The notes: generated by a model from the letters alone, not told the origin. A DNA stretch of 64,000 nucleotides from Candidatus Aenigmatarchaeota archaeon (GCA_016432325.1 CP066684.1:672001-736000); one strand, 5' to 3'. Shown: positions 5,402 through 58,135, counted from the first letter of the stretch. Made by a program: numbers and translations.

Positions 5402-5440
5402 TGGATCGCCCATGATTTCTTTAACAAGGCCCGATTCCGA

Positions 5441-5455
5441 TATAACACTGTTATA
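5441..5455. promoter_or_regulatory. Palindromic operator TATAACACTGTTATA, copy 1
   Basis: Perfect dyad abutting TTTAAATA box of the HTH gene; same 15-mer at 15151 and 17931. Confidence 0.6.
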
Positions 5456-5485
5456 TTTAAATAGCCGTGCGTGCAACTGACGCGT

Positions 5486-11008: not shown

Positions 11009-11122
11009 ACGGCCGATTGTTCCGGCCGGTATAAAAAGGATGTTGGCGCCCCCGGTGATGCACACTTTTTAAGAAAAAGTGTGGGCAAAAAACGACGTCC
11101 GTGCGACCTAAGATATAGAGGT

Positions 11123-11232
11123 TGGCGCCCCCGGTGGGATTCGAACCCACGACCCCTTGCTTAGGAGGCTTGCACGCCTTGAACCGAGATCCAAAAACAA
11201 AGTGCTCTGAATCCAAACTGAGCTACGAGGGC
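11123..11232 (-). tRNA. tRNA-Arg(CCT) with 30-nt intron at 29/30 (11170-11199)
   Basis: Acceptor GCCCTCG/CGGGGGC, encoded CCA; anticodon stem CTT^GC/GCAAG restored on intron removal; BHB helix GCAC/GTGC. Confidence 0.9.
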
Positions 11233-14782: not shown

Positions 14783-15150
14783 TGCTATTACCTCCATTGT
14801 ACCGGCCAGAACGAGAGTCGCCTATTATACACTCTATCTTTGTGTTCCCACACTGACGGTGAACATGAGACTCGTTCTCCGGTGATTTTTGATGTTTTGT
14901 TATCGCGTTTACCAACGATGACGTCTGACTTTTGTAATGGTATTTGGCCCGCCGTTAACTACGCGGCCTCACCGTTGGCCTCAGAGGCCATCTCGTCCGG
15001 TGTGATCCGACAGGCGCAAACGTTCTTTCGGTATTGGGGTATCATTCTCTCATACAGCACGTCGCGCATAGCGCAAACAGCAGGCTTCAAGAATCGATTC
15101 TCAATACCTGCTCTGATAGGGGAGGGGTAGTTATTTAAGCGTATCTGTAG

Positions 15151-15165
15151 TATAACAGTGTTATA
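15151..15165. promoter_or_regulatory. Palindromic operator, copy 2
   Basis: TATAACAGTGTTATA about 10 bp from a minus-strand TTAAATA box facing dnaG. Confidence 0.55.
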
Positions 15166-15313
15166 TTCAGGGGATATGTGTGCCTAAAAGGGTCGTATAT
15201 GGTCTATTCGCACACAATGCGCATGTTTTGAGCATCTGGCGACGAAAGAACGACGTATACGTCTTTTTGCACGCCGACCGCTGACTATCTTGGGAAGCAA
15301 ACGAAAACGCGGA

Positions 15314-17006: not shown

Positions 17007-17033
17007 ATTGACCACGGTATGATTGTCCGCAGA

Positions 17034-17090
17034 CGGACTTTTCATGAAGGTTTTTGCGCGTTGGCTTACGCGCTTGGCGCAAAAAGCTTC
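17034..17090 (-). repeat. Dispersed hairpin element (REP/MITE-like), free-standing copy
   Basis: 45/57 ungapped identity to 26530-26586, with compensatory stem changes. Confidence 0.75.
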
Positions 17091-17820
17091 AGGGGTACGC
17101 GCGCTTCAGCGTCTTCATCAGCTCCTCGGCGTTTTCTATGCGCGTCAGCGCAACGGGTATGCTTTCCACTTCGCCTATGCGCAGCGCGATTTCGTCCAGC
17201 TCCTTCGGACCCTGGAAGACCACCAGGTTCGGCTTCAGGTTTGTGACCTTCAGGGCGACCATGGGGCTGCGGCCGGACGAGACGTTGGTGAATATCAGGG
17301 CGCGGTCGGTCGTCAGCCCGTAGATGTTGACCAGTTCGGTGGGAGAAAGCTCTATTATGGCCTTTATCGCGTCCACTATGGTATAACCGTAGATGTTCCT
17401 GTCGCCGAGATCCTCGCGCACCATTATCCTGCACTTTATCTCCTTGCAGAAGTCCTTGACGTTTACCGGAGTCGTAAACTCCTTGATGTCAAGCACGGCC
17501 GAAGAGAGGATATTCTTTGACGGGAATGAATAGAACTCGCGCAGAACCCGTCCGCCGCGCCTGTTGTCTATGTTGACAAGGGCCTCCACAAACCGTTGTA
17601 TTATCTTTATACCGGGGCTGGTCCTGCGGCCGGACTCGTAGTCCGATATGACAGACGGCATGATGCGCAACTCGTCGGCAAGCTCGCGCTGGGATATCTT
17701 GAATATGTTGCGCCACTTCCTTACCGTGAGGCCGGGCTTGGTCGAGAGAACTATTTCGCCGCATATCTGTTTGATAAGGTTATCTTCGGCTATCTTATTT
17801 ACGTCCAATGCAGCACCCAA
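17089..17820 (-). CDS. XRE-family HTH regulator (COG1709-like)
   Basis: ICGEIVLS..RKWR..F.ISQ.ELA..SVISDYESGRR.SPG, GRSPMVALKV. Confidence 0.85.
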   Translation of the reverse strand: MGAALDVNKIAEDNLIKQICGEIVLSTKPGLTVRKWRNIFKISQRELADELRIMPSVISDYESGRRTSPGIKIIQRFVEALVNIDNRRGGRVLREFYSFPSKNILSSAVLDIKEFTTPVNVKDFCKEIKCRIMVREDLGDRNIYGYTIVDAIKAIIELSPTELVNIYGLTTDRALIFTNVSSGRSPMVALKVTNLKPNLVVFQGPKELDEIALRIGEVESIPVALTRIENAEELMKTLKRAYP

Positions 17821-17856
17821 TACGTTTTGTCGATGTGGATATTTAAATCTGTCGAA

Positions 17857-18205
17857 CCCTGCCTGACCCTTTCGTTTCGTCTGGAACGTCGGTATTCGTT
17901 TTTCGTGAAAACGAAACGCATGGATATAGATATAACACTGTTATATCAAGATATAGATAAGAGAGGGATGTTGCAGTGGAAACGATGGGGTGGGAGGGTC
18001 TTACGAGACGTCGAAAGAGATACGACGCTAGCCCCAAACATTTCAGATCAAGAACGCACAGACGTCCAAACCGCCGGTTATATTTACTCACATAGCACAC
18101 ATTCTATAAACGTTCAAACCATCGCTTCGTGTGGAGAAAAGCTTATATACACCCTCGTTTCGTATAGAGAATTCGCTCGCTTACCATGGTTTCGTATGGA
18201 GCGCG
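17857..18205. other. Probable chromosomal replication origin (oriC) with ORB elements
   Basis: ORB-like GTTGCAGTGGAAACGATGGGGTGGG (+, 17970) and GTTCCAGACGAAACGAAAGGG (-, ending 17887); weaker minus copies near 18151-18202; AT-rich segments; directly upstream of cdc6. Confidence 0.8.
17931..17945. promoter_or_regulatory. Palindromic operator, copy 3, inside origin
   Basis: GATATAACACTGTTATATC extended dyad in the AT-rich segment between two ORBs. Confidence 0.6.
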
Positions 18206-18223
18206 TGTGGGGGTTGGTCGCGA

Positions 18224-19414
18224 ATGCAGATGTCTCTGGAAAACGTAATACAAGGATACCTTTCTAGACGAAGCCTGTTCAAGGACAGAAAACCGTTCAA
18301 CGGCTACACGCCGGACGAAATTCTGCACCGCGACCGTGAGATAGAGACGGCGGCGTCGATACTCTCTCCGGCTCTGAAAAACCAGAGACCCTCAAATCTG
18401 TTCGTTTACGGCAAGCCAGGAACAGGGAAGACGACTGTGATAAACCGCGTCGCAGGCGAGATACAACGCCTCTCGGAGAACCACAACACGACGGTGAAGA
18501 TGGCGTACCTGAACTGCAAGCTCAAAAACGCCGCCGACACGGAGTATCGTGTAATCGCTTCTCTCTGCAAGGCGTTTGGTCGCGACGTTCCGGCCACCGG
18601 ACTACCGACCGTCAAGATATACGACGCCTTCTTCGACGCACTTGAGGAGGCAGGCGGCACGACCATAATCGTGCTGGACGAGGTGGATTTCCTCGTCGCC
18701 AAGATAGGAGACGGCTTCCTCTACAACCTGACGCGCATCAACGACGACCTGAAGAAGGCGCGCGTTTCGATAATCGGCATATCCAACAACCTGTCCTTTA
18801 CCGGGGCCCTGGATCCCCGCGTGCGTTCGTCGCTTTCGGAGGAAGAGCTGCTCTTCCCCCCGTACAACGCGCTGCAGCTGCGCGACATATTGAAAACGCG
18901 GGCGTCGATGGCGTTCAACGAGGACGCCCTTGAAGAAGGGGTCATTGAGAAGTGCGCCGCCCTCGCGGCTCAGGAACACGGGGATGCGCGGCGCGCGCTC
19001 GACCTCCTGCGCGTCGCAGGCGAAATCGCCGAGCGCGAAGGGGCAGAACGCGTGCGGATATCACATGTTGACGTGGCGCAAGGCAAGCTGGACGAGGACC
19101 GCGTGCTGGATGCCATACGCGCGCAGCCGCGCCAGTCGCAGACCGTTCTCTGGACGGTGATGCAGAACTCTGACGCGTCAACGGGCAACGTCTACGCTCT
19201 CTACGAAACCGCCTGCAAGAACAACGGCCTCAAGCCGCTGACGCAGAGGCGCGTCTCGGACCTCATATCAGAGCTTGACGTGCTGGGCGTCGTGGAGACG
19301 CGCGTGGTCAGCAAGGGCCGTTACGGCCGCACACGCATAATACAGGCAAGGATACCGCCGCATCTTCAGGCTCATGTGAGGGACGTGCTTGTGAAAGAGT
19401 TCTTCTTCGCATAG
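18224..19414 (+). CDS. cdc6: Orc1/Cdc6 replication initiator
   Basis: YGKPGTGKT, LDEVD, LDPRVRSSL, FPPYNA.QL, GDARRALDLLR, C-terminal wH with SKGRYGRTR. Confidence 0.95.
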   Translation: MQMSLENVIQGYLSRRSLFKDRKPFNGYTPDEILHRDREIETAASILSPALKNQRPSNLFVYGKPGTGKTTVINRVAGEIQRLSENHNTTVKMAYLNCKLKNAADTEYRVIASLCKAFGRDVPATGLPTVKIYDAFFDALEEAGGTTIIVLDEVDFLVAKIGDGFLYNLTRINDDLKKARVSIIGISNNLSFTGALDPRVRSSLSEEELLFPPYNALQLRDILKTRASMAFNEDALEEGVIEKCAALAAQEHGDARRALDLLRVAGEIAEREGAERVRISHVDVAQGKLDEDRVLDAIRAQPRQSQTVLWTVMQNSDASTGNVYALYETACKNNGLKPLTQRRVSDLISELDVLGVVETRVVSKGRYGRTRIIQARIPPHLQAHVRDVLVKEFFFA

Positions 19415-19433
19415 AATACGACAGCGTGGGAAA

Positions 19434-20408
19434 ATGGACGTCGTTGACGAGATGCTGCGAAAGGGGATGCTGCTGTCGCCGGAAGCCGCCGCAGTCCTGC
19501 GCAGGAAGCCGGAGCTCGTTTCAACACTGAGCGTTTCCGGCACGGTCGTCACGCTCGGAGACGTCGAACGTCCGTCTGTCGTGTGGTCCGCGCCGCAGAA
19601 AAATGCGTCCTCTGTCAGCGAGCTTGCCGAATTCTACGCCGCGCGCTTCGCGTTCTACCGCGGTCTCCTCGAGGCCAAGGCCGACCGCGCGTTGCTCGTT
19701 TCAATGTCGCAGGCGGCCGGCCACGGTTCGCGCGCGAGCATAATCGGAATCGTCCGCGAGGTCGGGCAGGGCTTTGCCGTGCTGGAAGACGGGACGAAAA
19801 CTTTGCGCGTTCGGACACAAGAGAAGCTGCTCGAGGACGAGTGTGTGCTCGTGACAGGGACGATGGACCGCGACGCGCTTGTCGCGGAGACGATACTGTT
19901 CCCGGACGTGCCCATCGGGCACGCGGCCAAGACGTCGGCCAAGGAGGCGCGGCTTGTCGTCTGTGTTGACCCAGTCGCCGCCAACGCCACAGTCCTCATA
20001 ACGAACGCGTCCGCGGACAGTTCGCGCATGAACTTCGCCGCAGGCAACTCCGTGGTGTGGCCAGACGGCGCTGACGGAACGCGCCCGGTCTCCCCGTGCC
20101 TCCTGAACATCAACGGTCTCTTCGTACTGTTCCACAGGATATCCGCGGCCGATCTCCAGCGCATCGCAGACGCGCCTGTCGACAAGGCGGCCATACGCCT
20201 CCTGCGTTCGAGGCATATCGACCCGCGGAACACGCTTCCGGGCGATCCTCTGCTTCTGCGAGACGTCCCGGACATAGTCGTTCTGGACACAGGCGTGGCG
20301 TTCTCGGCAAACTACAAAGGCGTTACTGTCGTGTCGCCGTCGCGCGAACGCGCGTACGAGATAGACCTGAGAACGCGCGAAGTCAAGGAATTCAAAGCGC
20401 AGGCCTGA
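19434..20408 (+). CDS. Degenerate DNA polymerase D small subunit (DP1)/B-subunit-like protein, exonuclease motifs lost
   Basis: N-terminal LRKGMLLSPEA helix, OB fold (IIGIVREV..LEDGT..VLVTG..ILFPDVP), LLRSRHIDP..DPLLLRDVPDI..NYKGVTVV; directly after cdc6. Confidence 0.8.
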   Translation: MDVVDEMLRKGMLLSPEAAAVLRRKPELVSTLSVSGTVVTLGDVERPSVVWSAPQKNASSVSELAEFYAARFAFYRGLLEAKADRALLVSMSQAAGHGSRASIIGIVREVGQGFAVLEDGTKTLRVRTQEKLLEDECVLVTGTMDRDALVAETILFPDVPIGHAAKTSAKEARLVVCVDPVAANATVLITNASADSSRMNFAAGNSVVWPDGADGTRPVSPCLLNINGLFVLFHRISAADLQRIADAPVDKAAIRLLRSRHIDPRNTLPGDPLLLRDVPDIVVLDTGVAFSANYKGVTVVSPSRERAYEIDLRTREVKEFKAQA

Positions 20409-20910
20409 GATGGGACCACGGGATGTGAGTCTCCGCGAACAGGTCCGCGCGCAGGTTTTCCACATGGACAGAACCGACGTCGACGGATTCGAATCGCGTT
20501 GCATACGCCCCGCACCAGTCAGCGACCCTTTTCGGCGTCAGCGTCTCGCTCTTGTGGAAAAACAGTCTGCTGTGGAATCCGTTGGCCCCCCACTTCTGGG
20601 CTCTGGCCGACACGTGGCCGCCTGTAACGTCGGCTATGAAATCGGCGGTAGACGCGGCGTCCTCACTACGACCGCGTTCCGTGTAGACGTCGACTCTTGG
20701 AGAGTGCTTGCCGTTGAGCCGTATGAAATGGCGTGCGTCGTAAGACGCGCCGCCCGGACCGCGAAGATTGACGTCAACGCGCCTGCACGCATCTTCCGGA
20801 AGCATCCTCAGTTCGTCCAGCGTCGGCGCGCCTATCACGTAGTCCGTTAAAATTATCGGAGCTTCCGGCACCTCGTCTCCAGTCGGTTTAAGAACGTCAA
20901 ACAGTCCCAT
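20392..20910 (-). CDS. Hypothetical protein
   Basis: 172-aa ORF with SD-like GAAGGGA and upstream TTAAATA. Confidence 0.55.
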   Translation of the reverse strand: MGLFDVLKPTGDEVPEAPIILTDYVIGAPTLDELRMLPEDACRRVDVNLRGPGGASYDARHFIRLNGKHSPRVDVYTERGRSEDAASTADFIADVTGGHVSARAQKWGANGFHSRLFFHKSETLTPKRVADWCGAYATRFESVDVGSVHVENLRADLFAETHIPWSHLRPAL

Positions 20911-21037
20911 AAAATCCCTTCAATAAACGCACTAACCTATTTAAGCGGCACGAAACGCGCCGCACAAACCTCTATAATCCGCGCCACAAATCTATTTTAT
21001 ACTACGAGTGCAACTAAAACGCCTTCGGGGGTTAGGC

Positions 21038-23728
21038 ATGCGGCTGCAGGTATTGGACGCAGACTACACAATGCTGGACAACAAGCCTCTGATGCGCATA
21101 TTCTGCAAGCGGCCCGACGGGAAGAGCGTGTGCGTCTTCTACCGGAACTTCCTGCCTTATCTCTACGCGCTTCCGCGGGGCAGCGACGAGGACGTGACGG
21201 CGCTTCTCAGGAAAAGGTTCGGCGGCGAGCTCCTTAACGTCGAGCGCGTCGAGCGTTTCCTGCCTATCGGCTACAACGACACGCCGGCGAAGCTTCTTAA
21301 AATAACGCTCCGCACGCCCTCGAAGGTGCCGGAAGCGAAGGAGGCGCTCGCGTCCATCGCAGAGCTGTACGAAGCGGACGTCCTGTTTCGCTACAGATTC
21401 TTTTCCGATTTCGGCATCGGCGGCATGGGATGGATAGACGTCGAAGGTTCCAACGCGAGCACGTCTACGGTTTACTGCCCTGTGATAGAGGCGACGTCAA
21501 TAACGCCCGTCCAATCGGAGGAAAACGTGCCTCTGCGCTACATGTCTCTCGACATCGAATGCGTTCCTCTTGAGATGGCCGGAATAGCCGGGGCCGAGAA
21601 AGACCCGATAATAATGATGTCCCTGATATTCGAGCCCGGGCACAAGGACAGGCGTAGCGTGGTCCTCGCCTCAAGACTCGGCATCACGAACGCCGAATGC
21701 TATCCGGACGAGAAGCAGATGCTCCAGGCGTTCATCGACGTCGTGCGAGCGTACGACCCCGACGTGCTCGTGGGTTACAATATCCAGAACTTCGACCTCC
21801 CGTACATCCTCAAACGCCTGGAGATTCACGGCTTGGAACGCAAGCTAGGCCGCGCGGACAAGACGACGTTTACGCGCACCATGGTCGGCAAGCAGGCCAC
21901 GGACGTCATTGGCCGTGTGGTCGCGGACCCGTACGTGATAATACGAAAACCCGACATAAGCACCATGCCGGGGTTCGCCAGGTTCAAGCGTTATGATCTC
22001 AACACGGTCGCGCACGACCTCCTCGGCGAGGAGAAGATAAAGATAGACCACAAGGAGATGCGTGACGCGTGGCTGGCCCGCCAGAAGATGGAGACGTACG
22101 TCGAGTACTGCCGCAAGGACGCGGCGCTTGCGCTTAACATACTGCTGAAATACCAGATGATGGACAAGTACGTCGCCATCGCGCGCCTCTCCGGGATCAC
22201 GCTGCAGGACTCGATCAACGGCGGCCAGAGCACGCGCATAGAAAATCTCCTGCTCAACGAGTTCAACAGGCGCGGCTTCGTGATGCCCCTCAAGCCCGGG
22301 GACGAGGAAGACGCAGAACGCGAAGCGGAACGAGGGCAGACGGAGTACAAAGGAGGTCTCGTGCTCGAGCCGGAGAAAGGACTGCACACGGACGGCTGTA
22401 TTGCCGTATTGGACTTCAAGAGTCTGTATCCTTCGATAATCATGACCTACAACGTCTGTCCCACAACGCTCGTCAGGAGCGACACGAACGCGTCGCTCAA
22501 CGTCTCTCCAGCAGGCGCCAAGTTCGTGACGGCGGACGTCCGCGAAGGAATACTGCCCGCGATACTCGGCAGGCTGATAGACGAGCGCGCGGCGGTGAAG
22601 AAGCAGATGAAGTCCGCCAGCGGAACGGCCAAGGCCGTGCTGGACGCCAAGCAGTTCGCCCTGAAGATGGCCACGAATTCGTTCTACGGCTACACAGGAT
22701 ACCTGCGCGCGCGGATATACGTCCTGGACGTGGCGAACGCGATAACGGCATACGGGCGCACGCTGATAGAACAGACCAGGGACACGATAGAAGGCCACGG
22801 CTACAAGGTCGTCTACGGCGACACGGACTCAGTGATGATAAAAATCCCCACGCGAAACCTGGACGAGGCCTACACCATAGGAAACGACCTCTCGCGCGAG
22901 ATAACGGAATCCCTGCCCGGAAGGCTCGAACTGGACTTCGATAAAATCTTCCGCTCGTTCCTCATTCTTACCAAGAAGCGCTACGCCGGATGGTCCTTCG
23001 AGAAGACGGGCGACAAATGGAGCGACAAGATAGAGATGAAGGGAATCGAGACCGTGCGCCGCGACTGGTGCGATCTCGTGTCAGAGACAATGGAAAACGT
23101 GATAGAGACCATCCTGAAGGAAGGCGACATCGGCAAGGCGATGGGAACCGTCAAGGAGCAGGTCGAGCGGCTCAAGCAGGGAAACGTGGACATCTACAAG
23201 CTGGCGATAACGAAAGGCCTCACGAAGAGCACGGAGCGCTACGACGGGATGCTGCCGCACGTGGAGCTGGCGAAGCGGATGAAGAAGCGCGGCGGCGCGC
23301 CCGCGGCCGGCGACAGGATACAGTTCGTAATCGTTTCCGGGAACGCCCTGATAAGCCAGCGCGCCGAAGACCCCGAGTACATTATACAGAACAAGCTAAG
23401 GATAGACAGCGACTACTATATCGGCTCGCAGCTGCTGCCGCCTCTGGAGCGCATCTTTGCCGTGATGGGAATCGAACGCAACGAGCTGACCGGCGGAGGC
23501 CGCCAGATAAGCCTCTTCGAAGCCATGAACGGCGGCAAGCCCCAGCGGAAGTTCTCTGTTGTGAGCGAGATGAACCCCGACAAGGCGGTCGTCACCAACG
23601 TCGAGGGCTTTTCGTGCCGCTCCTGCAAAACAACGTTCCGCCGCGTGCCGATTCTCGGCAAGTGCGACTGCGGCGGAGAAATCTACGCGTACGGCGGCGG
23701 CATGATGGGCAAGACAGTGGCGGTTTGA
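21038..23728 (+). CDS. polB: Family B DNA polymerase with PIP-like box and C-terminal DP2-like zinc finger
   Basis: Exo motifs DIE, GYNIQNFD, YCRKD; Pol motifs DFKSLYPSII, KMATNSFYGY, YGDTDS; RQISLFEAM; FSCRSCKTTFRRVPILGKCDCGG. Confidence 0.97.
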   Translation: MRLQVLDADYTMLDNKPLMRIFCKRPDGKSVCVFYRNFLPYLYALPRGSDEDVTALLRKRFGGELLNVERVERFLPIGYNDTPAKLLKITLRTPSKVPEAKEALASIAELYEADVLFRYRFFSDFGIGGMGWIDVEGSNASTSTVYCPVIEATSITPVQSEENVPLRYMSLDIECVPLEMAGIAGAEKDPIIMMSLIFEPGHKDRRSVVLASRLGITNAECYPDEKQMLQAFIDVVRAYDPDVLVGYNIQNFDLPYILKRLEIHGLERKLGRADKTTFTRTMVGKQATDVIGRVVADPYVIIRKPDISTMPGFARFKRYDLNTVAHDLLGEEKIKIDHKEMRDAWLARQKMETYVEYCRKDAALALNILLKYQMMDKYVAIARLSGITLQDSINGGQSTRIENLLLNEFNRRGFVMPLKPGDEEDAEREAERGQTEYKGGLVLEPEKGLHTDGCIAVLDFKSLYPSIIMTYNVCPTTLVRSDTNASLNVSPAGAKFVTADVREGILPAILGRLIDERAAVKKQMKSASGTAKAVLDAKQFALKMATNSFYGYTGYLRARIYVLDVANAITAYGRTLIEQTRDTIEGHGYKVVYGDTDSVMIKIPTRNLDEAYTIGNDLSREITESLPGRLELDFDKIFRSFLILTKKRYAGWSFEKTGDKWSDKIEMKGIETVRRDWCDLVSETMENVIETILKEGDIGKAMGTVKEQVERLKQGNVDIYKLAITKGLTKSTERYDGMLPHVELAKRMKKRGGAPAAGDRIQFVIVSGNALISQRAEDPEYIIQNKLRIDSDYYIGSQLLPPLERIFAVMGIERNELTGGGRQISLFEAMNGGKPQRKFSVVSEMNPDKAVVTNVEGFSCRSCKTTFRRVPILGKCDCGGEIYAYGGGMMGKTVAV

Positions 23729-24192
23729 TGAACGTTCTGGATATATCGCTCTTCCTTTCCGTCTGGGCGCCGTGGTTCGCCGTCCTGCTCGCGACGCCCC
23801 TTATCATGCACACGAAGAACTATCGCCGGGCTGTTTTGTACGTCGCTCTTCTCTTCGCCGTGCTGGCCGCCGTGGCAGCCGTCAAGACGCTCACTGCCAT
23901 TCCGCGGCCGGACGGCGCGCTGATTCCAGAACTCGGTTCGTCGTTCCCGAGCGGCCATGCGGCTCTTGCGTTCGTCCCTCTAGGATTCTACTGGTCGCTC
24001 GTGCGATGGCCGCACCGTATCGCGCTCTTCTTATTTGGCGCGCTGGTCGCATACTCTCGGCTCGTCCTGAACGTCCACTATCCAATCGATGTAGTCGCAG
24101 GCGGGCTGATAGGATTCGCCGTTCCATACGCTGTTATGAGGAACGAGAGAACAGTGCTTCGCCTGGTGCACAGAATCGTAAAGGAGCGCTAG
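23728..24192 (+). CDS. PAP2 family membrane phosphatase
   Basis: K..TAIPRP, SFPSGHA, SRLVLNVHYPIDVVAG; ATG overlaps polB stop. Confidence 0.9.
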   Translation: MNVLDISLFLSVWAPWFAVLLATPLIMHTKNYRRAVLYVALLFAVLAAVAAVKTLTAIPRPDGALIPELGSSFPSGHAALAFVPLGFYWSLVRWPHRIALFLFGALVAYSRLVLNVHYPIDVVAGGLIGFAVPYAVMRNERTVLRLVHRIVKER

Positions 24193-24193
24193 T

Positions 24194-25831
24194 CTACATT
24201 CCGTCCATGCCGCCGGGCGGCATCTGCGGTCCGCCGCCGCTGAGCTTCGACGCGGTCACGATGTCGTCTATTCTCAAAAGCATCTCCGCGGCCTCGGACG
24301 CGGACTTTATCGCCTGCGTCTTTATCTTGAGCGGTTCGATGACGCCTGCTTTCCACATGTCCACGACATTCCCCGCGTAGACGTCGACACCTGAGTGCTT
24401 GCCTCCCTTCTCGTGCGCGGCTCGCAGTTCGACGAGGATGTCTATCGGGTCCAGTCCGGCGTTCTCCGCGAGCGTGCGCGGTATCGATTCCAGAGCGTCC
24501 GCGAACGCTTGGATGGCGAGCTGTTCTCGCCCGGAGTATTTCTGGCTGAAGACGCGCAGTTTTCTTGCGACCTCCGCTTCTGGCGCGCCGCCACCTGCAG
24601 TAACGCGTCCTGTTTCAAGGGCCGCTGCTATACCGCCTATCGCGTCGGTCATCGCGCGTTCTATCTCGTCTATGACGTGTTCTGTTCCGCCTCGTATGAG
24701 TATTGAAACGGCCTTGGGGCTCTTGCATTCGCGCACGAACACCATTCGCTCTCCGGCGACCTTCTTCTCTTCTACAAGCTTCGCATAACCAAGGTCGTCC
24801 TTCGAGAGCGCGTCAAGGTTCGTTACGACACGCGCTCCTGTCGCGCGTGCAAGCGCGTCCATGTCGCTCTTCTTGACGCGGCGCGTCGCGGCGACCCCTG
24901 CCTTCTGCAGGTAGTGCTGGGCCGGATCTTCTATACCCTTCTGGCAGAATATGAGGTTCGCGCCCGAAGCGACGACCTTCTCGACCATCTTCTTCAACAT
25001 CTTGTCTTCCTGTTCGAGGAACGCCTCCAGCTGGTCAGGCGACGTTATCTCTATCTTCGCGTCCGTTTCCGTCTCCTTGACTTCCAGAGCGACGTCGAGC
25101 AATGCAATCTTGGCGTCTTTCACGACCTTGGGCATCCCGGAGTGAATTATCTCCTTATCCACGACGACTCCCATGATCAGTTCCGTGTCTTCAACGCCCC
25201 CGCCCGTCTTCTTTTCAAGCTTGATATTCTCATCGTCGACGCTGCCGTCGTTCTCCCTTACGAGAAGAACGGCGTCCATCGCCAGTTGCGCGAGATGCTC
25301 GCTGGCGCGCTCGGCGCTCTTGCCTGTCATCGCCGTTATCGCAATCTGCTTGAGAACGTTCTTGTCCTTGCTGAGATCCACCTTCTCCGCGCCTTCGTTC
25401 AGAATTTTCAGAGACTCTTCTCTGGCCATCTTGTAGCCCTTTGCTATTACGGTCGGGTGAACTTCTTGGTCTATCAGATCTTCAGCGCGCTTGAGCAGTT
25501 CTGCGGCTATGACGACAGCCGTGGTTGTTCCGTCGCCGACTTCCTCTTCCTGTGTTTTGGCGACTTCGACGAGCATCTTCGCCGCCGGGTGTTCTATCTC
25601 CATCTCTTCGAGAATTGTAACGCCGTCGTTCGTTATTACGATGTCGCCCATGCTGTCCACGAGCATCTTGTCCATGCCTTTCGGCCCGAGCGTCGTTCGC
25701 ACTGTGTCGCCCACCGCTCGCGCGGCAGCGATGTTGGATTTCTGGGCTCCTTTGCCCGTGTTGCGCAGCGTGCCCTCGGGCAGTATGAATATAGGTTGCG
25801 TTCCGCTTGGCAGTCCTGGCATTCCGTTCAT
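24194..25831 (-). CDS. thsA: Thermosome (group II chaperonin) subunit
   Basis: [36 protein letters not shown] tail. Confidence 0.95.
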
Positions 25832-25933
25832 ATTTGTTACCCCCAAATGTTATCCCTAAAAGGATTGCGTCTTGCGTAACGTAACAGCCGAATCAGCTAT
25901 TTAAACCTTACCGGAGAGCATCGGAGGGATACT

Positions 25934-26179
25934 ATGGTATTTGTGTGGCAGGACGCGGCCTTTACGATTGGCCAGCTGATTTTCATGATTAGCCTTCTTC
26001 CTACTGTCATGGACCGGAAATCTCAGGTGCCTCGACAGACCAGCGTTACTACGACCGCGATTATGCTCGGATTCGCTGTGACGTACGTGTCCTTAAATCT
26101 CTACTTCGCCGCCGCCCTGAGCTGCCTGCTGGCAATAATGTGGGGAGTCGTGGCGTGGAAGCGGCCCGTAAAAAAGTGA
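25934..26179 (+). CDS. Small three-helix membrane protein (PQ-loop/SemiSWEET-like)
   Basis: Three hydrophobic helices, LLPTV after helix 1. Confidence 0.55.
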   Translation: MVFVWQDAAFTIGQLIFMISLLPTVMDRKSQVPRQTSVTTTAIMLGFAVTYVSLNLYFAAALSCLLAIMWGVVAWKRPVKK

Positions 26180-26188
26180 TGATGGACC

Positions 26189-26455
26189 CTAACGAATCCT
26201 TCTGTCTTGAGAGTCATCGCACCGAATCTCGTGAAACCCTCCACTGGCGACTTCCCGCGCCATCTGAGCCGCGCTCCAATAATCCCAAAACCTCATCCCG
26301 CCTTCACCAATAATCAGACCGTAATACACGTCCGTGGCCTTGGCGCCGTCGGACGGTTCCGCCGGGAAGAGGATGGTAGCTAACCATCTATACCCAAGAT
26401 CGCTCTCCCAAGCACGAATGACTTTCTTCCCATCGGCGAGCAAAGTCCTACTCAT
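26189..26455 (-). CDS. Hypothetical protein, weak DUF2958-like pattern
   Basis: KVIRAWES..GYRWLAT..YYGLIIG..WDYWS; 5' part of the track ORF is the tRNA-Ile gene, so trimmed. Confidence 0.45.
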   Translation of the reverse strand: MSRTLLADGKKVIRAWESDLGYRWLATILFPAEPSDGAKATDVYYGLIIGEGGMRFWDYWSAAQMAREVASGGFHEIRCDDSQDRRIR

Positions 26456-26529
26456 GGTCGACGTTACACCCAAATCGATATAAAGACAATGGTGGACCCC
26501 GAACAAACCTTCGGTTTGAACGACGTAAG

Positions 26530-26586
26530 CGTATTTTTCGCGAACGTTTTTCGGCGTTAGCTTACGCGATTGGCCGAAAAAGGTTC
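26530..26586 (-). repeat. Dispersed hairpin element, copy in tRNA-Ile trailer
   Basis: Matches 17034-17090; followed by a duplicate of the tRNA 3' end at 26490-26499. Confidence 0.75.
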
Positions 26587-26774
26587 TGGTGGACCCGGCC
26601 GGAGTTTCAATGGCACGAAGCCACTTCGAATTCGCCAAAGCCATTGCGTTTTTGCTAAAGCTTTTTCGCAAAAAGCTTCTCCGGCGACCCCCGGCTAGCC
26701 TAGACTCGCACTGTAACGATTTCCGTGCGAGGGTCATATAAGACCGGTGCTCTAACCAACTGAGCCACGGGTCC
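26587..26774 (-). tRNA. tRNA-Ile(TAT) with three introns: 37/38 (26697-26736), 53/54 (26631-26680), 59/60 (26604-26624)
   Basis: Spliced 77-nt cloverleaf GGACCCGTGGCTCAGTTGGTTAGAGCACCGGTCTTATAAGCCGGGGGTCGCCGGTTCGAATCCGGCCGGGTCCACCA; BHB helices CTTA/TAGG, CGCC/GGCG, TTCG/TGAA. Confidence 0.9.
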
Positions 26775-26801
26775 ACACACCCCCGTGAGCGCGTTTAACA
26801 T

Positions 26802-27284
26802 TTAAGCTTGTTTCCCGCCGCTCATAAGGTTGCTCTTCTCAACCAAAAGAACCTCTCCAGAATGCGCGTCTATCCTAACGTTGAGAGCCATTCCGCTCGC
26901 CTCCAAGAAAGTGACGTTCCAATACTCCATGCCGTTCTTCTGTACAGCGAGTATTATTTTGACGGGCTTGATTTTAGACTCCTCGGCGTTTCTCAACGCG
27001 GTCTGAAGCGCCGTCGCCTCGTCCGTCTCGGGCATCTTGTCGAACGGAGCATATGTTTTCTCGTGGAGCGGCACGTCTGCGTCCTCCGTCGCAACTCCTT
27101 TCTCGGAAACGGCCACCGGAACCATCTTGCCTGTCTTCGGAACGTAATAGCTGAGGTTCCACGCGTCTATCTTCTGTTTGGGATTGAGCATCACATAGGC
27201 CGAGCAGAAGAACGCGCCTCTGGCTTTCAGCGCCTTGACGTCTGCTGAATCCTCTGCCATTTTCACCGCATCTGCGAGCTTCAT
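26802..27284 (-). CDS. Hypothetical protein (PepSY-like repeats)
   Basis: WNLSYY and WNVTF..VRIDAHSGEVL. Confidence 0.65.
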   Translation of the reverse strand: MKLADAVKMAEDSADVKALKARGAFFCSAYVMLNPKQKIDAWNLSYYVPKTGKMVPVAVSEKGVATEDADVPLHEKTYAPFDKMPETDEATALQTALRNAEESKIKPVKIILAVQKNGMEYWNVTFLEASGMALNVRIDAHSGEVLLVEKSNLMSGGKQA

Positions 27285-27334
27285 ACGCCGTCTGCAAAAG
27301 AAGATTATAAATACTTCGTGTACAAAGCGACGCT

Positions 27335-27898
27335 ATGATAGAACGCACGCTCGTACTCATCAAACCCGACGGCGTGGCGCGCGGACTCATCGGAGAGTGC
27401 GTCAAACGTTTTGAACAGCGCGGCCTGAAAGTCGTCGGAATGAAGATGATCCGTCCTGACGCGAAGCTTGTGGGAGACCATTACACAGACGACCTCGAGT
27501 GGCTGACGAGCGTTGGCCGCAAGACCAAAGTTTCGTACGAGAAGAAAGGCATGAAGATGGACAAACCCGATGTCGAGATAGGCCGCTACGTGCGCAAGTG
27601 GCTGATGGACTACCTCGCGTCAGGGCCTGTCGTTGCGCTCGTTCTTGAAGGGCATCACGCCGTGGAGATAGCGCGCAAATTATGCGGCGACACAGAACCG
27701 CGCGTCGCCCTGCCCGGAACGATCCGCGGGGACCTTTCCGTCGAGTCGTACATGATAGGCGACGAGAAGCAGAGGCCCGTCAAGAACGTCGTTCACGCGT
27801 CAGGCTCCGTCAAAGAGGCGGAGAGCGAGATGAAGGTATGGTTTTCCGAGAACGAACTCTGCTCATACGAGCGCGTTGATTGGGCGGCGATACACTAA
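27335..27898 (+). CDS. ndk: Nucleoside diphosphate kinase
   Basis: ERTLVLIKPDGVARGLIG, SGPVV, PGTIRGD, NVVHAS. Confidence 0.95.
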   Translation: MIERTLVLIKPDGVARGLIGECVKRFEQRGLKVVGMKMIRPDAKLVGDHYTDDLEWLTSVGRKTKVSYEKKGMKMDKPDVEIGRYVRKWLMDYLASGPVVALVLEGHHAVEIARKLCGDTEPRVALPGTIRGDLSVESYMIGDEKQRPVKNVVHASGSVKEAESEMKVWFSENELCSYERVDWAAIH

Positions 27899-28362
27899 CC
27901 CAGATACCGCTGCGTGCCTTCCTCTTCCTCGCTGTACTCCTTCCAGTTCTTCTCCATCAGTTTCGTGAGCTCGAGCATCCGTGGCTTGAACTCCTTGGTC
28001 CATGCCGCGTAGCACTCCTTGATGAACTTGGCGACGTTCTCGTCCGTGGGTTCGAAGAACGCCTCAAGCGAACGCCACCTCAGTTCGTGATTTTTTCTGT
28101 ACAGTTCTGCGTACGCGTTGCGCTTGTCGTTCAGCGCGTGCGCCTCGAAAACGTGCGAAGGTGAAGAGCCCTCTGAGAGGAACAATATCGGTTCCAGAAC
28201 CTCCTGCATGGCGGTGAACGTGTCGACTATGGCCTTCTTTACATCTTGCAGAGGCGTCTGCGTCTCTTCTTCGAGGACGAAGCCGAACGTGCTCTCAAGC
28301 TCGTCGAGTTTGGGCAGGCCGAGCTTCGTCTGCAGCTTCTTGAAATCCGTGCGGGAGGACAT
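27895..28362 (-). CDS. Hypothetical protein
   Basis: 155-aa helical ORF ending YLG; upstream TTAAATA. Confidence 0.7.
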   Translation of the reverse strand: MSSRTDFKKLQTKLGLPKLDELESTFGFVLEEETQTPLQDVKKAIVDTFTAMQEVLEPILFLSEGSSPSHVFEAHALNDKRNAYAELYRKNHELRWRSLEAFFEPTDENVAKFIKECYAAWTKEFKPRMLELTKLMEKNWKEYSEEEEGTQRYLG

Positions 28363-28548
28363 GAAAAGAATGGCCAGACAAGATATTTAATACCGATACT
28401 CCCATCCTTTGGCAAGGGCTGGTGGCCATACACGCTTTTACCGGAAAGATTCGCTTTCCGTAAATACGGAATGCCCTGCATTCCGGTATTTTGAGAAAAA
28501 GCGTGGCAAAAACACGTTTTATACTTGCTCGTCGTTTGTTTTTCCAGT

Positions 28549-28798
28549 GGGCTGGTGGTCTAGCGGTTGCGCCTTTTTGCTGCGGCAAAAACCCGCGGGA
28601 AAAAATACGCCTGCCGGCAGCGCCGCACATGACGTCGCCTTAGGGAACACGATTCCCGGTGAACACATGGCGAATATCGCCGGTTCGAACCACCCTTTTG
28701 CGCGCTCGCGCTCTTCGAGCGCTCGCCTGTAAACGCGCAAAAGCGTGCACGGAAAGTCCGCCTGATGGCGCGACTCGAGAATCCGGCCCGGCCCACCA
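28549..28798 (+). tRNA. tRNA-Val(CAC) with three introns: D-loop (28569-28628), 33/34 (28642-28663), 59/60 (28690-28781)
   Basis: Spliced 76-nt cloverleaf GGGCTGGTGGTCTAGCGGTTATGACGTCGCCTTCACATGGCGAATATCGCCGGTTCGAATCCGGCCCGGCCCACCA; BHB helices GCGG/CCGC, CGCC/GGTG, TTCG/CGAG; TTTTATA about 30 bp upstream. Confidence 0.9.
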
Positions 28799-28850
28799 AA
28801 ACCTCACGGCAAGGGCCGTTGAAACGCGCAGCGTTTCTTGGGCCCACCAA

Positions 28851-30677
28851 TCACCCAAGCTCCGCATTGACTCTCTGCATCACGGCCTCCGGGCTGGCGT
28901 AGTACACGGATATTATCTTCGAGACGTCCCTGTAGTCGGTTATCTTGCGCGCGCGCATCCATTCCAGCACTTTAGCTCGGTTCCCAACCTCGTTCTTTAT
29001 ATCGTCTTCCCTGACGCCGGTCTGCTCGGAAAGCCGCTTCAGTATGTAAGAGCCTTTTGCCGACACGAATGTATCGGTCTTCGGTTCCCATGCGAAGGCT
29101 TCGTGCGCCACCGGAACGTTCTTGTCCCTGTCGAAGCCCGCTATCTCGTAAACGGACGCGACGCGCCTCGCGTAGCCGTGCTTCTTCTTCTCGCGCTTCA
29201 GGAAGACGACCATATCCAGCGTTTCAATCAGGGACGGCGAGAGGTTTATCGGGGCCGTGACGAGACGGTCCATGAGTTTCTCCATGTCTTCGGCGTGTAT
29301 CGTCGAAAGGCCCGTGTGGCCCGTAGCGATTTGTTGGAACAACACGTACGCTTCCTGGCCGCGAACCTCTCCGACTATGATGTAATCGGGCCGTTGCCTC
29401 AGCGACGATTTCAGGAGGTCGAAAAGGTCCACCTTGCCGTACTCCTTCTCGCCCATGCTCGAGATGGCTTCGCGCGCCACTTCCGGAACCCAGTGCGGGT
29501 GGGTGAGCTTCAGCTCAGGAGTGTCTTCTATCGAAACTATCTTCATCTCCGGTCGTATGAACAGACTGAGCACGTTAAGAAACGTCGTCTTGCCGGTTGC
29601 CGTGCCGCCGGAGACGAGGATGCTCTTGCCGTGTTCTATGCAGTACCAGAAGTAGGCCATCATAAGCGAATCGCACGTGCCGAAGTCTATGAAGTCCGTC
29701 GGCGTGAGCGGTTGCTCTGTGAACTTTCTTATCGTGAAGTTTGAGCCGCGCCGCGCGATGTCCGTGCTTAGCGTCGCCTGCAGACGCGAACCGTCCGGCA
29801 ACGCCGCGTCAACGAGGGGTTCGGCCATCGATACGGAGCGACCGGCCTTCTGCGCGAGACGGAACACGAACGAGTCCAGCTCGTCGCGGTCCTCGAAGAC
29901 GATGTTCGTCGGCACAGAGCCTATGCGCGGGTTCCTGTGGTAGATGAAAATGGGTATTCCGGTGCCGTCGCACGATATGTCCTCGATATAGGGGTCGTGC
30001 ATCAGCGGCTCTATCTTGCCCAACCCGATGAAGTCGCGTTTGATGTAGTAGACGAGAATCGCCTTCTTTGCGGGGTCCGGATTCGCTTCGAGGACCCGTA
30101 TGACTTCGTCTATCTTCTGTTCGAGGTAGCGTTCGGCCTCCGTACTCGTGACCTTCGTGAAAGAGACGTCGAGCCGTTCCTGTAATGTATCCTTGATGCG
30201 CTTGAGAACCACCGCGTCCTCCTTGCTCAACTGCGGTTCGACGACGGCATAAACGACCGAATGCGTGGACGGATTCCACGTGATGTGCGCGTACGCGAAT
30301 ATGCGCTCTCCTTTGGCCGGTTTCGCCGGCACGAGCGGATAGACGGCGTTGATTGTTCTGATATCGTCTTCTTCGTTAGCCGACGCCTTGGCCTTGGCCA
30401 TCTGTACCTTCGGCAGTTTGAGGAGCCGGCTCTCAGGAAGCGTCGCCGACTTGCCCTTCTCGACTATCTCTATCTTCACAGGTTCGTTCTGCCGCGGCAG
30501 CCCGGTCGGGATGGCATATCCGGCGATTGGCCGGCCTTCGGCGACGCTCACAGGGAACCCCGTGCCGTAACCGCCGCCCGGCGCGCCCCCTATCCTCCAC
30601 TTCCCCGCTGTTTCGAGAAGCTCCGGATGCTTCTGCGCGGCGTCCTTGAGCAGCCGGACGAGTTTGTTGACTCTCAT
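28851..30677 (-). CDS. Type IV pilus/secretion assembly ATPase (FlaI/TadA-like)
   Basis: IEDISCDG, LPDGSRLQ, FTIRKF, GGTATGKTT, IEDTPE, LRQRPDYIIVGEVRG, TGH..STIHA. Confidence 0.93.
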   Translation of the reverse strand: MRVNKLVRLLKDAAQKHPELLETAGKWRIGGAPGGGYGTGFPVSVAEGRPIAGYAIPTGLPRQNEPVKIEIVEKGKSATLPESRLLKLPKVQMAKAKASANEEDDIRTINAVYPLVPAKPAKGERIFAYAHITWNPSTHSVVYAVVEPQLSKEDAVVLKRIKDTLQERLDVSFTKVTSTEAERYLEQKIDEVIRVLEANPDPAKKAILVYYIKRDFIGLGKIEPLMHDPYIEDISCDGTGIPIFIYHRNPRIGSVPTNIVFEDRDELDSFVFRLAQKAGRSVSMAEPLVDAALPDGSRLQATLSTDIARRGSNFTIRKFTEQPLTPTDFIDFGTCDSLMMAYFWYCIEHGKSILVSGGTATGKTTFLNVLSLFIRPEMKIVSIEDTPELKLTHPHWVPEVAREAISSMGEKEYGKVDLFDLLKSSLRQRPDYIIVGEVRGQEAYVLFQQIATGHTGLSTIHAEDMEKLMDRLVTAPINLSPSLIETLDMVVFLKREKKKHGYARRVASVYEIAGFDRDKNVPVAHEAFAWEPKTDTFVSAKGSYILKRLSEQTGVREDDIKNEVGNRAKVLEWMRARKITDYRDVSKIISVYYASPEAVMQRVNAELG

Positions 30678-30759
30678 CGTAGCACCAGACAGATTTGCAT
30701 TTTTCAGTATATGAAACTGCGGTTTCAAACGTCCGTCGTGCTGAGATCGACGGACAATA

Positions 30760-31233
30760 TCATATCGACGGTCTGAGCAGGCGTATCGTTTTGCCGGCCC
30801 GACTGCCCTCGATTCTTATCGCGCCCGCCGAGCTTGAAACCGTGCCCGATACGAGATATGCGCCGGCCACGCCCTCTATATCCATCGTGGAGTTGGCGTT
30901 GTCTGACAACACGATGAGCCGCGCGCCGTCCGCGGCCACCGTGTACTCGCCCATCGATATCTCTTTAGGTATCTCAATCGTCACGGACGCGCTGGAGCTG
31001 TACGACAGTTCCTTGGCAACGCGTTCCATTCCTGTCATGACGAGCGCGCCTGCTTCGTTGAGCTGGTCGTCTTCTGCCAGCCCGGCGACGCGGTCGCTTA
31101 TCGCGCGGAAGCTGAAGAGTATGCTGAGCGTGATGACAAGCCCTATCGTGAAGAGGAACATCTGCTCGATTGTGAGGCTCTGCCCCTTCCTGCCCTCTAG
31201 GGCGGGAAGCTCGTTCTTGCATGCACGCATCAC
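30760..31233 (-). CDS. Pilin-like protein with class III signal peptide
   Basis: RKG/QSLTIE followed by hydrophobic helix; upstream of the ATPase. Confidence 0.75.
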   Translation of the reverse strand: MMRACKNELPALEGRKGQSLTIEQMFLFTIGLVITLSILFSFRAISDRVAGLAEDDQLNEAGALVMTGMERVAKELSYSSSASVTIEIPKEISMGEYTVAADGARLIVLSDNANSTMDIEGVAGAYLVSGTVSSSAGAIRIEGSRAGKTIRLLRPSI

Positions 31234-31925
31234 TCGAACCTCAGAACGATGTTCACGACGTTCAGGTCCCTACCGTCAGAGCCGCCGCCCTTTATCGTGT
31301 CGACGCCTTCGTGGACTATCGTTATGTCGTGCGTCCCCTGCCCGACGACGTCGCGCCCGCTGGTCTTCAGGTTTATCAGGTTGCCGACGCTTCCTGCCAC
31401 GGTCTCCCTGTATGCCAACGTAAGCTCGACGCTGAAGCCGCCGTCGATCGCCTCTGAGAACGCTTTTAGCGCGCCCGCGTTGGATGTTATGGGAACGACC
31501 GTGCGGTTGTCCCCGGAGAGGTAGATGTCAGAGCCCGTCGCTATTATCTGACCCGTCGTTTTGAAAGAAACCGAAACTTCGTCGTTGTATCCGTTGTCCG
31601 CAAGCCTGAGTTCTCCGGGGACGTCCACGTTCTCTATGCGTTCGCGCCCGCCGGAAGCAGCGACGCGCTCTATCTTCTCGTCCATGTCCTTCATGAGCCG
31701 CTCCATGTTGTTCATAGTCACTGTGTCCTTCTGCTTCTCGATCAGCGGGACGCCCCAGAAGTACGCGGCAGAGACGAGCACGATGAGTATGCCCGTGAGC
31801 AGCACGGCCGTGACGAGTTGCGACTGTCCTTTCACACTTTTAGAAAAAGTGTGTACGGCAACACCTGTTGCCGACATGCCGAAAAGCCGCGCTTTTCGTG
31901 CATGGGCAAAACACGGATGCTTCAT
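31230..31925 (-). CDS. Pilin-like protein with class III signal peptide and hairpin-derived N-terminal extension
   Basis: KG/QSQLVTAVLLTGILIVLV..WGVPLIEK. Confidence 0.75.
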   Translation of the reverse strand: MKHPCFAHARKARLFGMSATGVAVHTFSKSVKGQSQLVTAVLLTGILIVLVSAAYFWGVPLIEKQKDTVTMNNMERLMKDMDEKIERVAASGGRERIENVDVPGELRLADNGYNDEVSVSFKTTGQIIATGSDIYLSGDNRTVVPITSNAGALKAFSEAIDGGFSVELTLAYRETVAGSVGNLINLKTSGRDVVGQGTHDITIVHEGVDTIKGGGSDGRDLNVVNIVLRFE

Positions 31926-39815: not shown

Positions 39816-40277
39816 ATGCTAAAATCGAAGAATACCAACAAATCCGGCCAGTTTTTCATGACTTACCGACCACGCCGAGGTAAGTTTGAAAAACTTCACA
39901 AATCCGGCCAGTTTTTCATAATCTCAACGATAATCGTCGCGTTTTCCTTGGTCGGCATCCAGTTTCTCCTCGCCGGATACAACCTCGCCGATCCTTCAAA
40001 GATATTTGCGCTTCAGGAAGACTATCTCTTCTTCAATACCAAAGCGGCTCTGAACCAGACGTATTACGCGTATCCCTGTCCTCTCATGGAACGGAATCTG
40101 AACGAAGTGAAGAACGGTCTCGAAAGAAAACTGCAGACGCGGCTGATGATTCTGAATGTGACGTTCACGGACCCGTGCGCGGGCGCCGGAGAAAACACGA
40201 AACAGACCACGACATTCTACGTGAACCTGACGTCGCGCACGTATGTGCTGTACGACGAGTTCACACTAGCGCCCTGA
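39816..40277 (+). CDS. Class III signal peptide (pilin-like) protein with duplicated processing motif
   Basis: KSGQFF twice, then hydrophobic helix. Confidence 0.7.
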   Translation: MLKSKNTNKSGQFFMTYRPRRGKFEKLHKSGQFFIISTIIVAFSLVGIQFLLAGYNLADPSKIFALQEDYLFFNTKAALNQTYYAYPCPLMERNLNEVKNGLERKLQTRLMILNVTFTDPCAGAGENTKQTTTFYVNLTSRTYVLYDEFTLAP

Positions 40278-49483: not shown

Positions 49484-49623
49484 GAAGTATTCGAACGAGG
49501 TTCGAAGATTTTCACGCGCCCGCCTCCGCGCGGCGTGAAAACTTGAGACCGCGTTTCAAGATTTTCAGGACCTATCCCCTCCATCCGGTCCCGAAGTATT
49601 TGAATGAGGTTCGAAGATTTTCA
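49484..49623. repeat. Three-unit palindromic repeat array downstream of tRNA-Gln
   Basis: 31-nt units at 49484, 49537, 49593; units 1 and 3 match 29/31; all end AAGATTTTCA. Confidence 0.7.
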
Positions 49624-49657: not shown

Positions 49658-49863
49658 TGGTAGCCCCGGTAGGATATTCATGAAACGCGCGGCGTTTCAT
49701 ACTTTCGGCTTCTTCGAATCCGAAAGTCTTCGAACCTACGTCAACGGTTAGCTTCGTCTGCTCACAGTTCTTTCGAACTCGCATCTTTAGAGACAAACTC
49801 CAAAGACCGCTATCCTTTTGTGGAACCGCTGGAATTCCGGTTTGGCCACTAGACGACGGGGCT
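49658..49863 (-). tRNA. tRNA-Gln(TTG) with three introns: D-loop (49818-49843), 37/38 (49750-49799), 59/60 (49675-49728)
   Basis: Spliced 76-nt cloverleaf AGCCCCGTCGTCTAGTGGCCAAGGATAGCGGTCTTTGGAACCGTTGACGTAGGTTCGAATCCTACCGGGGCTACCA; BHB helices GTGG/CCAC, CTTT/GAAG, TTCG/TGAA. Confidence 0.9.
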
Positions 49864-58026: not shown

Positions 58027-58135
58027 GCTCCGGTAGTTCAATTGGCAGAATGCTACGCTGTTAAACACTCCGCTCAAAGGGGCGGGTGCAAGCGGAGACG
58101 TAGAGACGGAGGTTCGAGTCCTCCCTGGAGCGCCA
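58027..58135 (+). tRNA. tRNA-Asn(GTT) with canonical 37/38 intron (58064-58097)
   Basis: GCTCCGG/CTGGAGC acceptor, CTACG/CGTAG anticodon stem, GGAGG-TTCGAGT-CCTCC, CCA; BHB helix CTGT/GCGG. Confidence 0.9.

Follow-up and report, generated by a model that had tools for sequence, protein, structure and literature searches.

Rickettsia palindromic elements, organellar GC clusters and double-hairpin elements are enzyme-less palindromes that occur in protein reading frames and RNA genes; they are likened here by description to a folded DNA element of an archaeon but, unlike its intron copies, they are not removed by protein-catalysed splicing. The REP/REPIN sequences with their RAYTs are also short, dispersed, non-coding palindromes, mostly at gene ends, nested or clustered and with predicted single-strand folds, and CGTC REPs apparently have no dedicated transposase (PMC3116915, PMC3733652). 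The present element differs from these in its long and variable target duplications, its mirror third strand and its main home, which is tRNA and rRNA introns.

The entry of intron DNA into archaeal tRNA genes has been called "the central open problem" in a 2026 study of heavily interrupted Asgard tRNA genes, in which no donor sequence, mobile element or arrival route came to light (10.64898/2026.10.13.758758). The Asgard genes resemble those studied here in that most tRNAs have several non-canonical introns, at BHB-forming sites, that standard tools miss, whereas here free-standing, donor-like copies are present. Transposed tRNA introns of the Thermoproteales are similar in different tRNAs, have BHB ends and are proposed to have been gained at the DNA level, by a mechanism given as not known (Fujishima et al. 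2010, summarised in PMC4090602); the present element, by comparison, is a sub-intron module that also occurs outside tRNA genes, in both orientations and with target duplications. ARMAN-2 and N. equitans are likewise DPANN hosts with BHB/BHL introns at 59/60 and in the D-arm and an EndA with an L3-type loop, while the available parts of the two reports do not describe a mobile repeat as intron content (PMC3239211, PMC5829648).

No description of the element was found in the literature searched, in which subscription journals were thinly covered. New here are a close empty site, a phylum-wide copy survey, three-way covariation in this particular module and a strand-specific DNA mini-hairpin. 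The module exists in three settings: free-standing, where relatives have empty sites; next to tRNAs, where target duplications accompany it; and within introns. This provides donors, targets and a defined structure to test. A selfish folded DNA of about 60 bases behind stop codons, beside tRNAs and in introns would be a testable lead on the source of archaeal intron sequence, and would point to a mobilising activity in a minimal genome.

Genome and features of the window

The window is the whole 64,000-nucleotide stretch analysed, positions 672001-736000 of a genome (G000) that is a single contig of 874,869 bp with 55.9% G+C and 90% completeness. Its nearest protein matches are Ca. Aenigmatarchaeota MAGs and the genome is Aenigmatarchaeota-like (DPANN), the host presumably being a tiny groundwater archaeon. 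A JGI metagenome scan with the thermosome as query found no relative above 70%. Four DNA runs from one study, perhaps the source of the assembly, match it with zero differences in long pieces, which argues weakly against an assembly artefact; no empty alleles and no polymorphism were seen in these four runs of the population. The loci of interest in the window are as follows.

11042..11120, plus strand: short-type element consisting of the hairpin 11061-11083 and a tail, in antisense orientation to tRNA-Arg
11042-11057, equal to 11121-11136: exact 16-bp duplication of the tRNA-Arg 3' end, enclosing the 11061 short-type element
11123..11232, minus strand: tRNA-Arg(CCU), 29/30 intron 11170-11199 with 4/4 helix
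16851..17006, minus strand: ORF for a small conserved membrane protein (MNxRW), 82 nt from the HTH gene here, adjacent or stop/start-coupled to it in relatives
17012..17019, minus strand: decayed second copy of the ~9-bp target, 5 nt 5' of the next ATG, from the L287 empty-site comparison
17025..17091, minus strand: long-type copy A, arms 17045-17059 and 17077-17091, C.C mismatch, mirror A-tract tail
17025-17038, minus strand: terminal mini-hairpin of copy A, which starts on the TGA stop of the HTH gene
17089-17097, minus strand: first copy of the ~9-bp target, containing the HTH gene stop codon
17089..17820, minus strand: HTH_3 transcription regulator gene, full length, host gene 5' of copy A
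26490..26523, minus strand: second small hairpin module (26504-26518) and the 10-bp tRNA-Ile 3'-end duplicate
26490-26499, equal to 26587-26596, minus strand: tRNA-Ile 3'-end duplicate, 10 bp
26524..26586, minus strand: long-type copy B, immediately past the CCA of tRNA-Ile
26587..26774, minus strand: tRNA-Ile(UAU), introns 37/38 (26697-26736), 53/54 (26631-26680) and 59/60 (26604-26624)
26631-26680, minus strand: short-type element in the tRNA-Ile 53/54 intron
28416-28425, plus strand: tRNA-Val 5'-end duplicate, 10 bp, opening the 28416..28548 insert region
about 28429-28513, plus strand: short-type element, double-hairpin module nested in its loop (28439-28488)
28549..28798, plus strand: tRNA-Val(CAC), introns D-loop 28569-28628, 33/34 28642-28663 and 59/60 28690-28781
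28567-28615 and 28688-28766, plus strand: long-type copies in tRNA-Val (D-loop and 59/60 introns)
28799..28850, plus strand: 42-nt "dumbbell" insert and tRNA-Val 3'-end duplicate (28841-28850 equal to 28790-28799)
31230-31925, minus strand: prepilin-like gene, the same-genus orthologue being without the 31833 element
31833..31915, plus strand: short-type element, antisense and in frame within the prepilin-like gene's leader, with a double-hairpin module nested in it

Structure of the long-type element

The first-pass annotation had aligned 17034-17090 with 26530-26586, and the same result was obtained here: 45 of 57 positions are identical without gaps, each hairpin has one C.C mismatch, and the arms of 15 and 14 nt are 93% complementary. 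The compensatory stem changes that it described extend to 16 aligned copies, in which 90.5% of cells are paired and nine of 14 pairs are altered on both sides; this covariation was reached by none of 500 shuffles, a figure that is not a P value since the copies are related. The tRNA-Val(CAC) 59/60 intron is indeed a third copy, its tail CACGGAAAGTCCG at 28748 (plus strand) matching CATGAAAAGTCCG at 17046 (minus strand), and a fourth, overlooked earlier, lies in the Val D-loop intron (28567-28615).

In the orientation of the pre-tRNA, the long type opens with a 4-bp outer stem, the C.C mismatch and a T-tract/A-tract helix. A G+C stem follows, its loop variable, and then come a turn of 6-7 nt, a purine tract mirroring the A-tract, and a small terminal hairpin. 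Members of the family are 55-70 nt long, and the repeat unit in the tandem arrays of one relative (L308) is 56 nt. Head-to-tail arrays of the element or related units were seen in L308, L140, L305 and L307, in or near tRNA genes and from other families.

The tail mirrors the A-tract in that 55 of 59 distinct copies show three-way covariation: in 32 of them tract base, partner and tail base are C/G/G, in the other 23 they are T/A/A. A tail G stands opposite the C.C column in 54 of the 59. These counts, like those for the mini-hairpin below, overstate independence because the copies are related. The geometry appears to be of the triplex type, so the C.C "mismatch" probably forms part of a base triple. 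The terminal mini-hairpin, cGN(N)Ag, is found on the complementary strand in 34 of these 59 related copies and on the shown strand in one, compared with 2.2 in shuffles; 14 of the 34 are not GNRA (11 GNYA and three GNA). Across tRNA genes as a whole GNA triloops are only weakly in excess, and a clear bias is seen only in the long-type terminal loop. The 34 copies thus have a DNA-type GCGNNAGC mini-hairpin on the strand opposite the pre-tRNA, which would be the template DNA strand because intron copies are almost all T-tract-first in RNA. The GCGNNAGC/GCGNAGC sequence is unusually stable as a DNA fold and far weaker in RNA (PMC13037366), and the structure is kept in antisense copies. The placement of the mini-hairpin and the mirror tail favour recognition as single-stranded DNA.

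Distribution and genomic contexts

Further copies had been predicted from a covariance model, and the model finds 24 matches in G000, 23 of them distinct; 16 of the matches are training copies, and the model was trained mostly on intron copies. Sixteen of the 23 copies are in tRNA introns (D-arm or T-loop), one is beside a tRNA, and six are elsewhere: after stop codons, between genes, at gene starts and in a prepilin leader. The expected enrichment in introns is therefore present, with 16 of 23 copies in the tRNA genes that sum to 8.8 kb, or about 1% of G000, for a model trained mostly on intron copies. About 20 of the 23 long-type copies are in transcript sense; antisense copies of either type include those at 11061 and 31833 in the window and at G000 301491, 314538 and 420419. 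A replichore bias was considered and dismissed on inspection, as opposite orientations are found just 2 kb apart (26530 and 28688).

Positions after stop codons and tRNA 3' ends, mainly in sense, and strong structural conservation could suggest that the hairpin is a terminator, a stability or processing element or a splicing aid that is kept for the benefit of the host. This is considered very improbable: orthologous sites in relatives are without the element, some copies run antisense, lie in frame within prepilin leaders or form tandem arrays, and the conserved terminal loop is carried by the complement of the RNA strand.

The same-genus genome G001 has 12 model matches, while expanded sets of 13-18 matches are found in distant families (G059, G067, G085). 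Its distribution across the phylum is patchy: of 140 sampled relatives, 17 gave matches at E<=1e-4. Families f20 and f24 have 5-18 copies and none were found in 27 genomes of f22; f1 also counts as element-rich, and f14 and f19, like f22, as element-free. Further contexts in relatives are the interior of 16S and 23S rRNA genes and sites next to tRNAs, the latter with duplications of 14-19 bp. Two exact patterns searched in viral contigs gave zero matches.

Empty sites and target duplications

Presence or absence at orthologous sites, which the first-pass annotation had made a test of mobility, does vary. The best empty site is on a syntenic contig (L287) with an HTH orthologue of 81% amino acid identity, where 5 nt separate the stop codon from the next ATG, compared with 82 here; the extra DNA at the junction ends in a decayed ~9-bp duplicate of the stop region. 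At least six further order-level relatives have the HTH gene and the small membrane-protein ORF overlapping or adjacent. In L286, a relative with an HTH identity of 83%, an AT-rich and unrelated insertion of ~190 nt (1012-1190) occupies this junction. The prepilin leader that holds the 31833 element is short and empty in L016 (64% orthologue; probably same-genus G001), and the endA stop is empty in G001. Conversely, a tRNA-Leu(GAG) D-loop intron with the element is present in G001 and absent in G000, and intron presence differs between the two genomes in orthologous Leu-GAG, Met and Ile-GAU tRNAs. Two near-identical G001 tRNA-Thr contigs, which may be separate strains, differ by modules of 34 and 51 nt. 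Empty sites could also be losses because the relatives are only 64-87% identical in protein.

Copies flanking tRNAs have direct repeats of the tRNA ends around them, which had been overlooked. A repeat of at least 8 nt of the tRNA 3' end is found nearby for 12 of 45 tRNAs (expected 0.7), and of the 5' end for seven (expected 0.5). TATA boxes, ribosome-binding sites and start codons are duplicated by repeats of a similar kind. There are thus covarying copies, empty orthologous sites, nesting, tandems and direct repeats of ~9-22 bp at many free sites, and the element is supported as a putative small, non-autonomous mobile element.

tRNA introns and splicing

About 45 tRNA genes were found in G000 with a spliced-alignment script, while ARAGORN gave 10 candidates and Rfam eight; in the unspliced window ARAGORN reported 0 tRNAs and Rfam just two, and no Rfam family matched the hairpin element. 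Standard tools miss most tRNAs in such genomes because element-filled introns interrupt the genes. Most of the ~45 genes have one to three long inserts, with a T-loop insert in 31. After in-silico removal of three introns from each, ARAGORN calls both tRNA-Val(CAC) and tRNA-Ile(UAU), and in-silico splicing also yields a normal Arg(CCU), the tRNA with a 29/30 intron that adjoins the 11061 element. Among archaea, tRNA-Ile with the anticodon UAU is uncommon, most having a modified CAU instead. The window also has an unannotated tRNA-Gln(UUG) at 49658-49863 (minus strand) with three introns, the limits of the D-loop intron being uncertain, and two distinct genes, at window 58027-58135 and G000 851596-851835, both appear to be Asn(GUU) once spliced.

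The central BHB helix is 4/4 in all six introns of the Val and Ile genes, and the flanking helices are often relaxed. Of the 31 T-loop inserts genome-wide, 10 have a central helix of 4/4 and about 26 one of at least 3/4, the chance level for 4/4 being 2.2% from internal positions. One EndA gene (G000 849757-850320, ~187 aa) and one RtcB gene are present in G000; this EndA carries the lysine-rich 6-residue loop of N. equitans EndA, which M. jannaschii EndA does not have, and one report links the L3 loop to more disrupted tRNA genes (PMC5829648). It is a fair inference from the BHB helices, EndA and RtcB that the element is neutralised by splicing when in introns.

In most cases the 5' splice junction and the start of the element coincide or are a few bases apart, while the partner of the BHB helix is in unrelated linker DNA 3' of the element, and no full BHB was found in free copies flanked by target duplications. 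The element therefore appears to be intron cargo. Of the proposal that it colonises or seeds BHB introns, colonisation is the better supported part; seeding is speculative, and the BHB ends are not supplied by the element. Splicing of free copies out of mRNA was considered and ruled out, since no full BHB forms in any register, barring one palindromic TATA case.

Sequence is shared with the T-loop intron of another tRNA in 24 of the 31 T-loop introns (null 0); the Asgard study gave 1.5% for shared intron families, by a different criterion (10.64898/2026.10.13.758758). Matches of T-loop introns to non-tRNA DNA by plain BLAST are barely above null (13 vs 3-11). Such sharing would be expected if hairpins arose and spread passively among conserved motifs (TATA, RBS/ATG, CCA ends, T-loops), through replication template switching and microhomology-driven gene conversion, with selection acting only as a filter. 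Many inserts hold the reverse complement of their own target ahead of the duplicate, and the enzyme searches reported below are negative, both of which fit this explanation. It is nevertheless rated as decidedly unlikely: the same element is found in the D-loop, the T-loop, a prepilin leader and rRNA and at a stop codon, targets with no more than 3-4 nt in common, and passive exchange leaves unexplained why three-strand covariation and a strand-specific mini-hairpin are kept across families.

Mobilising enzyme, classification and proposed mechanism

Searches for TnpA, TnpB, IS110 transposase, RT and Cas1 found none of these in G000 (90% complete). The Y1 TnpA/RAYT family (PF01797), not found in G000, is present in two of 13 element-bearing genomes, and among the element-rich genomes no searched enzyme family is common to them (2, 3 and 3 of 13). 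Enzyme genes such as TnpA or RT flanked by the element, a search for which had been suggested, were not found in relatives. Two tyrosine integrases adjoin tRNA genes, with no element within 1.5 kb.

The suggested REP/MITE membership does not hold, as there is no tag, no terminal inverted repeat and no RAYT/TnpA. A short imperfect palindrome in multiple extragenic copies is shared with REP/REPIN; however, the element alignments contain no conserved unpaired GTAG or CGTC tag, and no RAYT/TnpA was found in the genome or beside copies. In place of the terminal inverted repeats of MITEs there is a hairpin followed by a one-sided tail of 20-25 nt, and in place of a fixed-length target-site duplication there are repeats ranging from none to 22 bp; as for an autonomous partner transposase, the search covered the IS200, IS605 TnpB, IS110 and Cas1 families and found none of them. 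An IS200/IS605 derivative (PATE-like) is also not indicated, since the target end is loose (NAA/CCA), duplications are common and TnpA was not found. The intron copies do have the features of archaeal BHB tRNA introns, namely a central helix, a restored tRNA and genes for EndA and RtcB. By analogy, the element would work like REP/REPIN or Rickettsia-type palindromes and overlap with Thermoproteales introns, yet it lacks the defining features of REP, MITE and IS200/605 elements.

Variable-length duplications and a short host overlap at the 5' junction are typical of retroposition. Both are seen here, the overlap being 3 nt, and with the predominance of transcript sense (about 20 of 23 long-type copies) and a DGR-like RT in the same-genus genome they are consistent with an RNA route, in which excised RtcB-circularised introns or transcripts are copied back by target-primed reverse transcription with an RT in trans (such as the DGR RT); the mini-hairpin strand would then be cDNA. 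That RT (G001, L315:1252-2377) is split over two frames and has no flanking element. The route is regarded as unlikely, because neither G000 nor 10 of 13 element-bearing genomes yielded an RT, the RT genes that were found have no element nearby, the antisense copies listed above exist, and free copies are without BHB ends.

The explanation that we favour, by a modest measure, is that a trans-acting enzyme copies a folded single-stranded module at the DNA level and often leaves a staggered duplication; the new copies would then pass through a survival filter and be copied from one tRNA paralogue to another. On arrival the element would be recognised as folded single-stranded DNA by its hairpin, mirror third strand and terminal GNNA/GNA mini-hairpin, and it would be inserted in trans, probably by a replication or repair activity of the host or by a mobile-element enzyme that is transient or went unrecognised. 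Where the target duplication restores the signal, the element may survive near TATA boxes, tRNA ends and the starts and stops of genes; inside tRNA and rRNA it would survive only by landing in an existing intron or where its ends form a BHB/BHL helix, which would be cut by a broad-specificity EndA and ligated by RtcB. Same-position copying between tRNA paralogues and nested insertion may then spread the element, lengthening and replacing introns. A wider proposal can be made only tentatively and with considerable doubt: that this is transposase-free archaeal mobile DNA, a single-stranded hairpin-triplex with a DNA mini-hairpin, inserted by host enzymes and creating tRNA and rRNA introns wherever a BHB forms, and so a source of the non-canonical introns of the phylum.

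Short-type elements and other hairpin modules

The shorter relatives that had been grouped with the element (11061, 28431-28513, the Ile intron and 31833) are related to it, but as a sister family rather than the same element. Only two of them score under the long-type model, with ~12 bits and E~0.6, while a strict short-type descriptor finds six copies in the genome and none in 20 shuffles; the 28431 and 31833 copies, both with nested inserts, were assigned to the short type by eye. Another short-type hairpin (L128:310-360, G000 about 849710-849760) begins on the endA stop codon and has no counterpart in G001.

A separate dumbbell unit of 42-44 nt, not the long-type element, accounts for several or many of the tRNA 3'-end duplications. 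At 26530 the insert is composite, made up of a long-type element and the 3' part of this unit. Small hairpins of other kinds are also present. At window 39838-39919 and 49497-49623, hairpin inserts lie between exact direct repeats of 22 and 18 bp; the first duplicates a start codon and holds the reverse complement of its own target. A small GAAAC-N4-GTTTC hairpin at window 30700-30730 is just 5' of a pilus ATPase gene and was not seen at the orthologous junction in L016. The AT-rich palindrome ATATAACACTGTTATAT occurs at window 5439-5457, 15150-15170 and 17929-17946, with ~10 intergenic copies genome-wide, one of them between cdc6 and the HTH gene; it is likely an operator and not a mobile element. 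Related hairpin inserts duplicate TATA boxes, and this family is found at G000 13828, 273209, 370022, 526981, 607629 and 852919, with a second module nested in some copies.
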